A stretch of 64,000 nucleotides of DNA from Rhizodiscina lignyota (taxonomy: Eukaryota): NCBI GenBank assembly GCA_010015805.1, contig ML978128.1:620001-684000 (forward strand), read 5' to 3'. Below are positions 31,808-43,052 of the stretch, piece after piece (within the stretch, counting starts at the first letter, position 1; the number at the start of each line of letters is the position of its first letter). The position numbers were made by a program, and so were the translations under genes. The notes beneath the pieces are model-generated. The model did no database searches. It saw only the letters and a program-made list of their open reading frames with translations, and was not told the origin of the DNA.

Positions 31808-32943
31808 TCATTTCTTTTTACCCCAGAAGACTCTGTTCAATTCGTTGCATGCCATCTGATAGTGTTCTTTGACACCAGGCATCACCCTAAGTGGATTCGG
31901 CGCCTTGTCCCACGCGTGTGATACTCCAGGGATGCAGTGGTAGACGACATTCTTGTGCTGCTCTTTTATCAACCGGTCCCGCAGCCTCTCGCCTTCCGCA
32001 AGAAGCATGTCCCACTCGCAGGTGAACATAACGATTTCGTCGGGCAGACCAGCAAGCATGTAGTCTGGAGCAACGCCCGGACTAAGATATGGGTTGCTCC
32101 GGTCTAGCGTCGGAGGTTGAAGATACGAATCGTCGAACAACTCGAAGAAGACCGCAGGCAACTGCTGGTCCGGTCGTGCACAGGTTAGCCGTCGCTGCTG
32201 GCGGCTCTGTGTGTAGTCCGTGCTAGGATACCAGGATACAATCGCCACTATTTTTATCTCCTTGTGCACGTCCACCAGTGTGCGTCCCATGCTTAGGCCC
32301 TTTTGTATGAGACTTTCAGCGGATGAGTTGGGGGTCGCTTCAGATAGCATCTCCTCCTGCAAGCGTAGCGGTACGGTGAACGCCATGTTGCCGCCAGAGG
32401 AGAAGCCGCTGATGGCGAAACGGTCGGCATCGAGGTTGAGTTGTTCCGCGTTGGATGCTAGCCAGAGGACGGCATCGACTCCGTCTTCAACTGCCGTGGG
32501 AAAAGGGTGTTCTGGAGCCCTCCGGTATTCCACTCCTACGACGACAGCACCTGTCTCCTGCACAACAGCATCTGCCCATCTAGCATCGTCCATGGTCTCT
32601 CCCAAGGTAAATCCACCTCCGTGGAAATTTATACACTTTACCTAAATGTTAGTATGATAGTCGACCTTGTGGATTCTACTAGAATATAGCGGTTACGTAC
32701 AACTGGATATCGTTTGCTAGCATCGCCCTTCTCCTTCTCCTCTTCATAGCCTTTCGGCACGTAAAACCGCAGCTTAATAGCTCCCTTCTTTTCTGCTACC
32801 GTTGTCTTGATCTCCCTCGAGAAGTTGGGGCGTGGTGGTCGAGGCGAGGCAAGTTTGTGAAGGAACATGCCAATTTGCATGAGGGAGCGCCAGAACAGTG
32901 CCTGGACATGGAGAACCCATCGCGGTCGACCTCGTTCAGCCAT
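31808..32943 (-). CDS. Alpha/beta-hydrolase (hormone-sensitive-lipase family esterase)
   Basis: NFHGGGFTLG oxyanion motif, YRRAPEHPFP, GFSSGG nucleophile, EWD and SHAW. One intron from donor 32700 to acceptor 32642 or 32636 (both in frame). Confidence 0.9.
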
Positions 32944-37186: not shown

Positions 37187-38868
37187 ATGTTCCAATTCAT
37201 CAACATCCATCTGGCATCGGACGCCAAACCGTCCGATCCACAGACGCGAAAGCGGATTCGGAAGCAAGCAATGCTTGCATCTGCCAAAATGGCGAGAAAA
37301 CGGAGGGAAAAGAACCCGCAATTCATATTCAAGCTTCACACACCTGTTGAGAATGCTGGTGAAGGTTCGTCGTCTAAGCAGACGATGGCCATCCGGCCAG
37401 CGGCATCTTCGTCTAAAACCATTGAGAAATCAAAATACGGGGATGTCTTGACGCTAGGGGTAGAGAATCCGTTCCCTCTCTTGCCTTGGTTATACAATGA
37501 TCCAGGATCTGGGCGTAGAAACCCGTTCGTAAGGTATCCAATAGCCATGAGCCTGAAGACCCATGCGATCATTGATACTCGTAAGTCTCTCCATCCCTGT
37601 GCGTCGCAGGATCCCGATATAGCAGTACCCTCCTGCACTGGCACCCACTTCCTTCTCCTGGATCTCAGGATTGCGTAGGAGCAGTAATCAAACCCTTATG
37701 GCTCTCGACACCCAGACGCCCGTTAGATGGATTCTTGAATACTGATTTGTCGTGTCTAGTTTTCAACGACCCATCAGGTGGTTTCTGTCCATTCCGGGAG
37801 TTCTGGTACCCTGCGAGTCTGACTGACCCGGCTGCGTTTCATCAGACGCTGTCCAACATCTGCACCAACTTGGCTGCACAGCACCCAGATGACGAAGAGA
37901 CACCGAAGCTCTCTGTCATCCACCACAGTCTTGCAATACGCTCTGTTAGCGAACGCCTGAATGATTTCCAGCCGAATGAGGCTGCTGGTATTATAACTAC
38001 CGTCCTTTCTCTGGCAGCACATTCGAATATTACCGCCAACTACCCGGGATTCGTCTCGCATATGGATGCCATCTCAAGAATTGCTCAGCTTGCTGGAGGA
38101 ATCAAGGCCATTCCACTCGCAAAGCAGACACGGTTGCTTGTTTTCCTCGTAGAGGTCAATGGCATCACCAGAAAGGACGAATATCCACGCTTGCCGATGC
38201 CAGTCGATCTGATTCCCAGTAGCGACGAATTTCTTCCTCCTGGCTGGTCGAGGAAGGATCCGATCACTCTACCCGATCCTCTACAAAGTGTCATCAGGGC
38301 TGAAGATATTGAGCTATCCCAGCGGCTCCGGGATCTTTACAGACTCGGCGCGGTACTAAATTTCAACTTCTCGGCCAGACGAATGGTCTGGGATGAGACG
38401 AAAATATCCGCTGCCTGTATCAGTCCTCTCTTACAAGGACTTCTGATGCTTCGGCCAGAAGCCGTCGATGTCGAGGACCCGTTGAGTGCTCTCAGAGAGG
38501 CAGTCAGAATAGCTGCCCTCATCGCTCTCGCGCCTGTACGAAGAGGACTTGGAACCTTCGAGGTTTTCAGCGATGCCCTTGTTGGGAAGCTACAAGACCT
38601 TCTGTGCCAACATCTTCAGCCAGGTAATATTAGTGAAGCTGTGGCCTCGAGAGCACCACTGATATTCTGGCTTCTCATGACGGGAGCTGTACAAGCGGTA
38701 GAAACTGAACATGCTCTTTGGTTCCGCCAATGGATCTTCGAATGTTCTGGCATCTTGGACATCCGTGGCTGGCTAAGTGCGCGCTCCTTGCTGGCAGAGA
38801 TCTTTTGGATTGACGAAGTCCATACTCCTCCAGGAATGGTGGTGTGGGCTGAGGTGCGGGCGATATAG
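37187..38868 (+). CDS. Fungal-specific transcription-factor-like protein (basic N-terminus plus helical Fungal_trans_2/DUF3468-like domain, no Zn2Cys6 cluster)
   Basis: N-terminus FQFIN..RKRIRKQAM, GSGRRNPF..YPI and DPAAFHQ..H..AIRSV..RL..HMDAI..AGGI pattern. Intron 37581-37759 keeps frame. Confidence 0.65.
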
Positions 38869-39267
38869 ATGCGAAATTGCACGAAATCGGATTCCTGCAA
38901 ATACCCAGACCGAATAATGAACGTCGGATTGGCACGCACTCCTTTGGACGAGCCCTGCTGTGGAAACTAGCGAAACTCTGGCGTGTTATGAATTCGATGC
39001 GTAGTTTGTGCTCTCGCGTGGAAAGAGTCGCAGTGTGAACATATTGTCTGAGGAAGGATATTCGTGATTTGCGAAGAATGGTAGTCAAAGTAAGTGTCAA
39101 GATCCTTTAGGTTTACGGCGTGAACCAGTGGTGTTATCTCGTTATCCTTCTTATGTTTATCTTCCAATTTGTTTTAAGTCATAAAGCTTGGGGTATGGCT
39201 TACCATGGGTACCCGAGCGCAGTAAAATTGTTGTTGACTATATAATTAGTTTCAGATTGCCTTACCA

Positions 39268-39470
39268 ATGCCTTCGGGCATATGGTGTAGTCTGGTGATC
39301 GGAGATTAAACTGAAAAGAACGGGTACGGTTAACGTGTTGCAGGGCGGTTCGATCCCCGAAGGGATCAAAATACTAACATTTAGGCGCTCAGTGACGGAC
39401 AGCACCTTCTCGTGGTACTGGGTGTAAGTAATCTTCTTAAGATGAAACTAAGACTGTCCATTATTTTTTT
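39268..39470 (+). ncRNA. Unidentified Pol III-type structured ncRNA gene with a spliceosomal intron (39324-39384) containing the B box
   Basis: TATATAAT at 39239. Hairpin ATGCC-TTCG-GGCAT at 39268-39281. A-box-like TGGTGTAGTCTGG at 39283-39295. Donor GTACGG at 39324. B box GGTTCGATCCC at 39347-39357. Perfect branch point TACTAAC at 39372-39378. Acceptor TAG ending 39384. Stem GGACAG/CTGTCC. T7 run at 39464-39470. Confidence 0.7.
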
Positions 39471-40212
39471 GGCATTTTTTTTCCTATGTAACTATAGCTA
39501 ACGATTCACCAAGATGTTGCACAGTTGTTCTGAATGAAGGCACTCGCATTCTTTTTTTTTTTTGGGATTTCTATTCATTGGCAATGCACGTGACAGAATT
39601 TTGCAGTGCCTTGAACCTCTTTATTCTCTCTGAGCTAACTGGTTCTGTAGGGATGCCAGTACGGTTATGCTTTAAGCGCACAGAGCTCGTAATGGCGCGA
39701 ATTAAGCTAGTACTGCCTTGTTGGCCTCGTCAAACTGCGTCACGAGATCGTTGAATACACTTTCCATAGCCGCTATCTCGAAACCCCTGACGAAGCTGCG
39801 AAGTCAATATGAGATTGATAACGTTTGGGTCGAGCAAGAGTGTAGACGTGAATATTTGGTCTCAGCATGCTCAGTTCAGAGACTCTGTCAGCTGGCGGCG
39901 TCTGGTGCAGCAAAAGTCAAGGATATATGGGCAGCGAGGAAGCTGGAGCTTTCCGTTTCGCTCCCAAAGGGCCAGGAGACCCTTTGATTAACTTTCACAC
40001 ACGTGAACTACTCACTCGAACGGTCGAACTCATTTCTTTTCCACAACCTCTGCACGCATAACTCTGAGAGCTGAATCCTCAACGCCTTCCATCCACTTTC
40101 TGCGAAAAATCCTCTCTGATCACACTCTCTCAATAACTCGCGGATAACACAATACGCACCTCCTCCACGGCACCATCCATCAAATCACCAAACGCGCACA
40201 AACACACGCACC

Positions 40213-40738
40213 ATGGCGCAATCTGCACCCACCTTCCTCGGCCTGCCGACCGAGCTGCGCCAGAAAATCCTCGACGAAGCTGCACAAGTCGTTCCATTAC
40301 CACAATCCCATACCAGGGAAGTCAATCCCGACTATTACGACGCAGTCGCCTACTACATCTCCCGGCGGAGGACGATCCGCGCGGTGCTAGCTGTCAACAA
40401 GCTATTGCACCAGGAGATGGTGAACGTTGTGGAGGTGCAAGAGCAGAAGTTTGTGGCGGAACTACCGCGCCTCCGCGAGCAGTACAGGGCCGCGATAGCG
40501 GTCTACTTGGACGAAGACACCGTGCTGTGTGTCGTGAACGAACAACACGAATTCAGCCAGGTTCAAGTCCGCAAGGGCCGTCGTGTGGCAGCGGTACCGA
40601 GTGGAGGGGCTTCTGTGGCGGCGTAGAGGAGGAGGAGATCAAGCAGAGAGGGATCTACGATTGGATCCGACGAGGTTCACAAGATGTCCTGGGAGCATTG
40701 CGGGTTTGGAATTGGGCACGACGTTTATATTGCACTTA
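40213..40738 (+). CDS. Hypothetical protein with an F-box-like N-terminal motif; 3' end uncertain (possible frameshift)
   Basis: ATG in CACCATGG context and PTFLGLPTELRQKIL motif. The ORF stops at 40626, but coding-like sequence continues in another frame to ~40738. Confidence 0.45.
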
Positions 40739-41117: not shown

Positions 41118-41792
41118 TCAGCTCTCTGCTCCATCATCCTCCTCCTCATCGCTTAGCTCTTCGCCAGGCAAGTTCGGAGGGAACCATCCAGCTTCCTCAA
41201 AATCCACCATCAGCTCTCCCAAACTCCCTCTATCCACCTTTACCCCTTCTTTCCTCAGAGCTGTTGCTTGTCGCGTCGCACCGTTTGGGCCCCTACATTT
41301 GTCCTGATTCAGCACCTTGATGTATAATATTGGGTCACGTGAGGACGTGTTCCAGCGCGTCGAGGACGGTGAACTGACCTTGGACTGATCATGCCTTTAG
41401 AGTTAATGACGCGTTGCCAAGGCGTATTTGCCTCATGAAAGCGTGGAGGTTTCTCAGTTTCGTCCTCTGGTTTATCGGGAAGGTGCTTGAGTGCTACGCC
41501 GACCTGTCTTCTGCTCGTCAGACACTTCAAACAGTACGGGGTGCAGTTGGCTACCTTGGACGTTCCGCTGTATATTTTTAGTAAGTTGTACTATTACGAC
41601 ACTGTGGAGATCCTTGAGAATAGAAGGAATGTTAGAAGACTTACGATGTCCCACAAGATACGCTATGTGCCCGTAGCTCGTAACTTTTCCGCGTGGTATT
41701 TGCTGGATCGCCGAATACACCATGTAATACCAGGCCGCCGCTTCTGCCGACTTCGGGCCCTGTGAGCGTTTAGACTTGCCGGCCCGAGGCAT
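41118..41792 (-). CDS. atl1: Alkyltransferase-like protein (MGMT/ATL family, Trp in place of the catalytic Cys)
   Basis: IPRGKVTSYGHIA..PRQVG..PWQRVINSKG. Inferred exons: 41792-41645, 41567-41555 (13 nt), 41507 or 41510 to 41379, and 41292-41118. Confidence 0.88.
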
Positions 41793-42015
41793 GATGATTG
41801 AATTTGAGACTCTCGAGAGCTTTACATGTCCAAATTCATATAAAACAGCGTCTAAGGAGTCCTGGCGGGACACGCGCTCTGATGATGGATCAGTCTACAT
41901 GTGGTCCGTGCGTGCATCGATCTTGAAGTTGAAATTTCTTGGCAATCGCAACCGTCACTTTATTTGAACTACGACGCTTCGCAGCTACAACATCCTCTAC
42001 CAGCTGTTACTAAAA

Positions 42016-43052
42016 ATGTCTTTGGCCGACTATCTCGCGAAGAAATACCTCACGGCGGACTCGAAATCAGAGAAGAAAGGCAAAAAGCGGAAAAGAAAAG
42101 AAGCCTCTGGCTTCAGCATTGCCGACGATGATACTCTAGGCTGGGAGAACCCGAAGAGCGGACGAGACGACGAGGACACGCCCATAACAGGTACACCTCT
42201 TTTTTCCATCTCATGCTGCAATGGTGAAAAGATACTAACTATTGCTCTCCAGTCGCAACCGGCAGCGCCGAATTCCGCAAAGCCAAAACCAACAACTGGA
42301 CAACAGTCGGCTCTACCGCGCCCTCAAGCGCACAGCTCGACCAGTCCGCCGAAGCCGCCGAAGCAGACGCTATCATCTCCTCCGCCGCAGCAGAGCGGGA
42401 GGCCGCCCGCGAACAGGAGGACGAGGCGCCGGAAATTGTTGACGAAGATGGCGTGACGACGATGCAGTCGGGCGCACTGGCAGGTCTGCAGACGGCAGCG
42501 CAGGTCGCTGCGGCAGTAGACAAGAAGCGCAGGAGGGAGCGGAAGAGAGCGGAGGAGGCGAAAGAAGGAGGCCCGGGAGGAGAGACGATATATCGTGATG
42601 CGAGTGGAAGAATTATCAATGTGGCGATGAAGAGGGCAGAGGCGAGGAAGCAGGCGGAAGAGGAGGAGCGCAAGAAGAGGGAAGCGCAAGAGGCGGCGAA
42701 GGGCGATGTGCAGAGATTGGAGAAGGAGAAGCGCAGGCAGGATCTTCAGGATGCGAAGCTCATGACTGTCGCACGATATGCGGACGACGTGGAGATGAAT
42801 CAGGAGTTGAAGGAGCGAGACAGATGGAATGATCCGGCTGCAGGCTTCATAGCAGAGAAGAAGCAAGGGAAGAGTGTGTCGGGGAGGCCGCTATACAAGG
42901 GCGCTGCTTGGCCTAATCGATATGGGATAAAGCCTGGGCACAAGTGGGATGGAGTGGAACGGAGCAATGGCTTCGAGAAGAAGTGGTTCGAGGCCAGGAA
43001 TCGGCAGAACAGCAGAAAGGAGTTGGAGCACATGTGGCAGATGGATGAATGA
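42016..43052 (+). CDS. BUD13: Pre-mRNA splicing factor Bud13/Cwc26 (RES complex)
   Basis: [31 protein letters not shown] and [26 protein letters not shown]. Intron 42191-42252. Confidence 0.92.

Follow-up and report, generated by a model that had tools for sequence, protein, structure and literature searches.

Introduction

Repeat families built on the genes for tRNA, 5S, 7SL or U1/U2 RNAs are known, and to our knowledge the genes of RNA polymerase III (Pol III) that carry spliceosomal introns are almost only those of U6, whose introns are regarded as vestiges of reverse splicing that took place at the catalytic centre. Yeast has tRNA-like leader promoters of the RPR1 and SNR52 type, and fungi possess introner-like elements and sequence-similar introns. 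Here we describe a repeat unit in a 64,000-nucleotide stretch of DNA from Rhizodiscina lignyota (GenBank assembly GCA_010015805.1, contig ML978128.1, positions 620,001 to 684,000; called the window below, with position 1 as its first letter). The unit combines Pol III-type signals with an intron-like stretch, and a first-pass annotation, made from the letters of the window, had taken it for a single gene. We put at about an even chance that it is a copy, by now somewhat decayed, of a Pol III unit which came from a U6-type gene, or less likely from a tRNA-type gene, and was multiplied as pseudogene or SINE-like copies (SINE, short interspersed element).

In PMC5855946, fungal U6 genes are described as carrying a TATA element and A and B blocks whose positions vary; the B block of the S. 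pombe gene is placed within its intron, and up to four unrelated introns are reported per gene, clustered near the ACAGA box and the internal stem-loop (ISL). The table of a Trichoderma review gives the T. reesei U6 promoter as used 'with 1st intron' (PMC9518982). Among fungal SINEs, the tRNA- and 5S-related AfuSINE2 and AfuSINE3 of A. fumigatus are described in PMC5063351. As for introns, PMC6616335 gives for A. nidulans a donor GTRWGY, a branch site RYTRAY, an acceptor YAG, a length of at least 42 nt and a minimum of 4 nt between branch site and acceptor.

Results

Copies of the unit elsewhere in the genome

All evidence for copies comes from one placement of contigs from the one public run (kind unspecified) that contains this DNA onto positions 38900–39900 at 80% likeness. 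Nineteen contig pieces were placed, of which 9 are identical at 99% or more, 4 at 95–99%, 4 at 90–95% and 2 under 90%; the details of individual copies come from 8 of these pieces. The unique flanks are represented by two contigs, one stopping at 39321 and the other starting at 39444, with depths of 152.8 and 154.9. A 146-nt contig that is identical to 39302–39411, into which copies are collapsed, has a depth of 649, about four times that of the flanks (~154). Summed contig depth, which is not copy number, rises from ~154 in the flanks to ~300 over 39240–39307 and to ~670–710 over 39308–39375, reaches 1919–2377 over the three bins of 39376–39477 (~13–15 times the flanks), and returns to the flank level after 39482. 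Among the contigs listed, records 2, 4, 5 and 6 (9.8–68.6 kb) each carry a copy; their depths (153.5–159.1) equal that of the flanks, which identifies them as single-copy regions of the same genome. No second copy was found inside the 64-kb window. The locus is thus one copy of a dispersed repeat, with its intron part at ~4 times and its 3′ module at ~13–15 times the flank depth, and not the single gene of the first-pass annotation. The family has roughly a dozen copies in the genome.

The placed contigs also show where the unit begins and ends. Likeness to other genomic copies starts at 39232 and stops at 39482 on the forward strand, giving a unit of ~250 bp. The upstream limit lies 7 nt 5′ of a TATA element; downstream, the likeness of three copies breaks off after 39482 and that of another after 39469, where this copy goes on with CTTCC and then T11. 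Since these limits run from just upstream of the TATA element to the terminal T runs, the bounds of the unit match its Pol III signals. Its most repeated part is a 3′ module at 39372–39482 (forward strand), which comprises a branch site, a 39-nt 'exon 2' (39385–39423) and the T runs.

Between these limits the copies differ unevenly. The copy on record 2 is unlike the window before 39232 and alike over 39232–39280, with 8 differences in 49 positions (41 of 49 kept); in its middle 118 other bases replace 91 of the window, and likeness resumes at 39372, the first base of the branch site TACTAAC, to continue through 39419 with 2 differences in 48. Another copy is alike only from 39382, where it is preceded by a ..GCTAAC-CCA of its own with the same 3-nt spacing to the acceptor TAG. 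In the collapsed contig the likeness breaks before 39302: 12 bases of the first hairpin, GCCTTCGGGCAT, are followed by 18 nt that differ from the window, so that 39282–39301 (forward strand) is a variable segment of the unit. At the junction of these 18 nt with the common part, ..TACA is joined to GAGATT.., which creates an ACAGAGA ~30 nt from the inferred RNA start; the window copy reads TCGGAGA there (39299–39305). The unit, in short, keeps its ends and its splice-like signals and varies in the middle.

Pol III-type signals

Every motif listed by the first-pass annotation was found on the forward strand at the coordinates it had given. A TATA element, TATATAAT, lies at 39239–39246, 29 nt upstream of the hairpin start and within the part that is kept in the second copy. 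The perfect hairpin ATGCC-TTCG-GGCAT at 39268–39281 would mark the start of the RNA. It is followed by an A-box match, TGGTGTAGTCTGG, at 39283–39295 and by a B box, GGTTCGATCCC, at 39347–39357 inside the intron-like stretch. The unit ends with two Pol III terminator-like runs, T7 at 39464–39470 and T8 at 39475–39482, separated by GGCA, and no TTTT run occurs within 39268–39463. T runs close other copies too. Together, the TATA element at −29, the UUCG hairpin, the A and B boxes and the T runs agree with the Pol III layout of U6-like architecture that had been proposed for the locus.

A second perfect hairpin, GATCCC-CGAA-GGGATC, which had not been reported before, lies at 39352–39367 on the forward strand. 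The A and B boxes are 64 nt apart (39283 and 39347), the spacing of a tRNA gene with an insert of ~20 nt. It is also a new observation that eight bases of the first hairpin, CCTTCGGG (39271–39278), are complementary to CCCGAAGG (39356–39363), and the minimum free energy fold of 39266–39370 includes this pairing as a long-range helix.

To see how often such patterns arise by chance, 100 first-order Markov copies of the window were searched on both strands (128 kb each). An A box followed by a B box 25–90 nt downstream was observed once, against a mean of 0.03 in the random copies, 3 of 100 of which reach one. The strict intron pattern (a donor, 30–90 nt, TACTAAC, 1–15 nt and YAG) was observed twice, against a mean of 0.22, and again 3 of 100 random windows reach this number. 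The pattern of TATAWAW 20–45 nt upstream of a 5+4+5 hairpin, observed once against a mean of 0.27 and reached by 23 of 100, is weak alone. No enrichment was seen for a looser intron pattern (13 observed, mean 9.1, reached by 17 of 100) or for bare hairpins (122 observed, mean 136.2, reached by 84 of 100). The only A-to-B-box match of the window, its only TATA-plus-hairpin match and one of its two strict intron matches all fall at this locus, and the first two, occurring together there, are no chance arrangement.

The intron-like stretch and a real intron in the window

The first-pass annotation had drawn a 61-nt intron at 39324–39384 (forward strand), with donor GTACGG at 39324, branch site TACTAAC at 39372–39378 and acceptor TAG at 39382–39384. 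These motifs lie at the stated coordinates, and the branch ACTAAC, the TAG and the length of 61 nt agree with the Aspergillus rules quoted above. Against the same A. nidulans consensus, however, the donor mismatches GTRWGY at positions 4 and 6 (2 of 6), and the spacing of 3 nt between branch site and acceptor is under the 4-nt minimum. The donor GTACGG of the putative intron is therefore doubtful.

As a control we used a 59-nt intron of an alpha/beta-hydrolase-like gene at 32642–32700 on the minus strand, which has the donor GTACGT and ends in ATACTAACATTTAG. Excising 32700–32642 joins ..KRYPV to VKCINFHGGGF.. in frame, with the HGGGF motif directly after the junction. This intron is the only other strict match of the window, and its branch-to-acceptor spacing is likewise 3 nt. 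Its last 14 bases, ATACTAACATTTAG, are also those of the putative intron at 39324–39384, and the 15-nt identity of the hydrolase intron end with 39371–39385 has a BLAST E value of 0.049. Since a real intron uses this 3′ end, it works in this organism. A common origin of the two introns was considered and rejected: their interiors are unlike, an equally good alignment being reached by 1351 of 5000 shuffles and by 1324 of 5000 random segments of the window. The intron signals of the unit nevertheless look live, to judge from the likeness between subfamilies that resumes at the branch site and from the 14-base end shared with a real intron.

A consensus donor, GTAAGT, which the first-pass annotation does not list, lies inside the 3′ module at 39424–39429 (forward strand) and is the only GTRWGY in the unit. 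A second, well-formed intron may be drawn from it, with GCTAAC at 39497–39502 and CAG at 39522–39524, and would span the end of the unit. A T12 run stands 3′ of this possible intron, at 39552–39563.

Searches for known RNAs, folding and relatives

The earlier statement that the RNA cannot be assigned to a known family agrees with Rfam, none of whose models reaches its gathering score anywhere in the window. When E values of up to 10 were allowed over 1001 nt and 231 nt round the locus, neither the U6 nor a tRNA model matched; the only line returned, SAM-II on a minus-strand A run (15.2 and 13 bits against 44), was rejected as chance. A cloverleaf is likewise absent, as had been noted: at the default threshold ARAGORN finds 0 tRNA genes in the window, with introns allowed or not, and its 120 and 244 calls across the window at lowered thresholds are noise. 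No C/D or H/ACA boxes were seen by eye. Several apparent likenesses, to the 3′ half of 5S rRNA, to the branch-pairing region of U2 (GUGUAGU), and to the 5′ end of U12 and loop 1 of U5, were dropped because no Rfam model supports them, and so was a sequence resembling an Sm site, AU7GG, at 39463–39472.

Folding of 39266–39470 gives a z score of −1.10, with 32 of 200 shuffles equally stable. The 5′ 105 nt (39266–39370) score −0.60, the minus strand −0.61, and the 140-nt RNA that would result from splicing −1.45. The fold is thus no more stable than those of shuffled sequences. The lack of both an Rfam match and excess fold stability fits decaying copies.

When metagenomes, which contain hardly any fungal DNA, were scanned with positions 39392–39411, a 20-mer from the 3′ module, 15 loci were returned. 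None was accepted as a relative, for all 15 are matches of 20–34 nt in GC-rich, repeated bacterial coding sequence and are attributed to chance. The 20-mer is identical to a stretch in bacterial repeat genes that encode ..VTDSTFSGN.., several of the loci holding many tandem copies, an identity that would mislead a pattern search. In a genome contig collection with hardly any fungal DNA a 26-mer gave 0 matches, and the 20-mer gave one, rejected as a chance match inside a bacterial membrane-protein-like open reading frame (ORF). A viral contig collection, again with hardly any fungal DNA, gave 0 matches, and these negatives carry little weight.

Comparison with described systems

Tested against the layout given in PMC5855946, the unit is arranged as a fungal U6 gene is, with a TATA element near −30, a 5′ stem-loop at the presumed RNA start, an A block and a T-run terminator. 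It also resembles the S. pombe and filamentous-fungal U6 genes, as described there and in the Trichoderma table, in placing a B-box match in a short, spliceosomal-type intron, and its sister copies have ACAGAGA ~30 nt from the start. It differs from U6 in that its 3′ half is an unrelated repeated module instead of the catalytic half, and in that the genome contains roughly a dozen copies that vary in form. The U6 covariance model RF00026 is unmatched, and the window copy has neither ACAGAGA nor the AGC triad with the ISL. Both absences had been noted in the first-pass annotation and are confirmed here: ACAGAGA does not occur within 39230–39490, although sister copies do read it, and the only AGC, at 39401, stands in a different context with no local model match. 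The unit is not a U6, since the model is unmatched and a module of ~110 nt stands in place of the catalytic 3′ half. For its head, we prefer a U6-type origin because of the U6-like layout and the ACAGAGA of sister copies; the preference rests on that layout, on one 7-mer and on the literature.

The nearest described class is that of the AfuSINE families. In PMC5063351 these are short (140–493 bp, compared with ~250 bp here), low in copy number and dispersed, and they have Pol III promoter boxes in the head followed by an unrelated body, all of which applies to the unit. By eye, none of the 13 sequences in Table 1 of the same paper resembles it. More generally, the unit is like SINEs in being dispersed, multicopy and short with an internal promoter of Pol III type, and unlike them in its T-rich tail (neither A-rich nor an ACT repeat), its intron-like stretch and the 36 upstream nt that one other copy shares.

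With tRNA genes and tRNA-like leaders the unit has in common an A box with a perfect B box 64 nt further on, which is tRNA-like spacing, a downstream RNA part that ends at a T run, and the 8-nt acceptor-like complementarity that flanks the two boxes. The fit is imperfect: the 'acceptor' and the A box are separated by six bases too many, three too few follow the T loop, and ARAGORN at its default setting sees no cloverleaf. The complementarity leaves a tRNA-type origin as the less likely possibility.

The intron-like stretch is also reminiscent of introner-like elements, as it is found in several near-identical copies and shares both of its ends with a real intron of the window; here, however, the repeat is larger than the intron, extending over a promoter-like 5′ part and an 'exon' as well.

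Setting of the locus

The window belongs to a fungal nuclear genome. The locus lies ~370 nt 3′ of the stop codon (38868) of a forward-strand ORF at 37585–38865 in which the fungal-specific transcription factor domain PF11951 is found (E 3.6e-07). On its other side, ~220 nt separate it from the end of a short minus-strand ORF at 39702–39803, ending in ..FDEANKAVLA, which resembles the final exon of a small gene oriented towards the repeat. Further on lie a weak, below-threshold match to the 2EXR family (40213–40623, forward strand), an ORF with a methylguanine-DNA methyltransferase DNA-binding domain (41472–41894, minus strand) and a homologue of Bud13, a splicing factor of the RES complex (42228–43049, forward strand, E 1.1e-50). 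The gap had been called ORF-free. This is correct for the forward strand, on which no stop-to-stop ORF of at least 50 amino acids crosses 39039–39451, but not for the minus strand, where two ORFs of 57 and 61 amino acids cover the same region; a protein collection search gave no relative of the latter.

Discussion

The reading that we place at an even chance, a Pol III unit that spread in the form of pseudogene or SINE-like copies, would work as follows. The front half would be of U6-like build, with the TATA element at −29, the UUCG hairpin at +1, the A box and an mRNA-type intron bearing the B box, and the ACAGAGA of sister copies would have mutated to TCGGAGA in the window copy. The back half (39372–39482) is the unrelated module of ~110 nt that ends in two T runs. 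TFIIIC would bind the A and B boxes and TFIIIB the TATA element, and Pol III would start near 39268 and stop at T7 or T8, yielding a primary RNA of ~200 nt from which the 61-nt intron is perhaps spliced out and in which it is perhaps retained. The polymerase, the start site, the U6 origin of the head and the mode of spread we infer from the arrangement of these signals. The earlier proposal of a small RNA of unknown function shares the Pol III layout, which fits; such an RNA is, however, one of several possibilities and less likely than a family of pseudogenes or SINE-like copies.

A number of observations weigh against this reading. As regards the U6 descent, the model RF00026 (gathering score 44 bits) is not reached in the window, no AGC-plus-ISL region is present at the locus, and the ACAGAGA of sister copies is a single 7-mer that was sought post hoc, with its chance of occurring there estimated at well under 1%. 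The complementarity of 39271–39278 with 39356–39363, right after the B box, resembles the acceptor stem of a tRNA. As regards a SINE-like spread, the best direct repeats between 39200–39285 and 39455–39540, sought as target-site duplications in this one copy, are two of 6 nt that lie off the limits of the unit, and the tail, T7-GGCA-T8, is T-rich and not A-rich. Nor does likeness begin at the transcription start as expected of a SINE: record 2 is already alike 36 nt before the hairpin. Since a retroposed SINE would not carry the upstream TATA element, either duplication of DNA or a start further upstream is needed. Finally, the copies show a 20-nt variable segment with many differences followed by 110 identical nt, and conserved ends round a variable middle; such uneven likeness could mean selection on a working RNA instead of decay.

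That alternative, a working multicopy family that encodes a spliced Pol III small RNA and of which the window copy is a variant member, strikes us as unlikely, yet it comes next in order. The RNA would be ~140 nt long, with a U6-like 5′ hairpin, ACAGAGA in most copies, and exon 2 running to a U tail. Conservation is patchy as selection would leave it: the TATA region and hairpin are kept in 41 of 49 positions, while the middle has 118 nt for 91, and likeness sets in again precisely with TACTAAC (39372) or, in another copy, with the TAG that follows a ..GCTAAC-CCA of its own. No part is better kept than exon 2, the promoter and terminator are the limits of the unit, no T4 run precedes T7, and the identical 3′ intron end functions in a real intron of the genome. 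On the other hand, four copies are identical over 110 nt, intron interior included, which argues for recent copying and not for old selected paralogues. Neither excess structure nor an Rfam family was found, the donor GTACGG departs twice from GTRWGY with a branch spacing under the stated minimum, and no relative outside the genome turned up in collections with hardly any fungal DNA.

Somewhat less probable still is another kind of repeat, read by Pol II or silent, such as a fragment of a transposon or long terminal repeat (LTR), or a mobile cassette that combines a promoter with splice sites and a short exon. In that case the A and B boxes would stem from an embedded tRNA-like relic, with which the acceptor-like complementarity agrees as well, and the T runs would be the pyrimidine tract of the second intron. 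The perfect donor GTAAGT at 39424 does lie in the most repeated part, and from it a well-formed intron could extend over GCTAAC at 39497 to CAG at 39524; this branch site and acceptor fall outside the repeat, however, so that each copy would need its own. The TATA element could serve Pol II. Conserved ends with a variable middle are typical of non-autonomous DNA elements, but an inspection by eye rejected inverted repeats of the type found in miniature inverted-repeat transposable elements, LTR ends (TG..CA with a 5-bp duplication) and Helitron-type ends. In addition, ARAGORN and the tRNA model find no tRNA at default settings, and the forward strand has no ORF of at least 50 amino acids.

That the motifs are chance, or a lone decayed tRNA gene without a family, is very improbable: the lack of a tRNA or Rfam match and of a second copy in the 64-kb window would suit it, but the A-to-B-box pairing is expected 0.03 times per window, and the many contigs of the same genome that carry copies refute it for practical purposes, unless they are contamination or assembly artefacts.

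What the unit means depends on which of these readings applies. If the copies are merely decaying pseudogenes, as in the multiplied Pol III unit that we prefer, the finding is an ordinary one, yet it aids annotation, since such copies would otherwise be called novel noncoding RNA genes one at a time. A literature search turned up no U6-based repeat family in fungi. It is rather doubtful that the copies form a small, still-spliced Pol III family descended from U6, one that would have kept the U6 hairpin, possibly the cap signal, and ACAGAGA, and exchanged the catalytic 3′ half for a new domain containing a perfect 5′ splice-site sequence, GUAAGU. The ACAGAGA box pairs with 5′ splice sites, and such a U6 paralogue, if real, could be a decoy or a regulator of the spliceosome. 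Equally new, if true, would be a U6-based SINE, the first of its kind, that incorporates the intron-borne B box of the gene. A family that copied a U6-type promoter along with such a B box would show how a split Pol III promoter can travel with its gene, and its naturally occurring variants could be used to ask which features let the spliceosome accept a Pol III transcript as a substrate.

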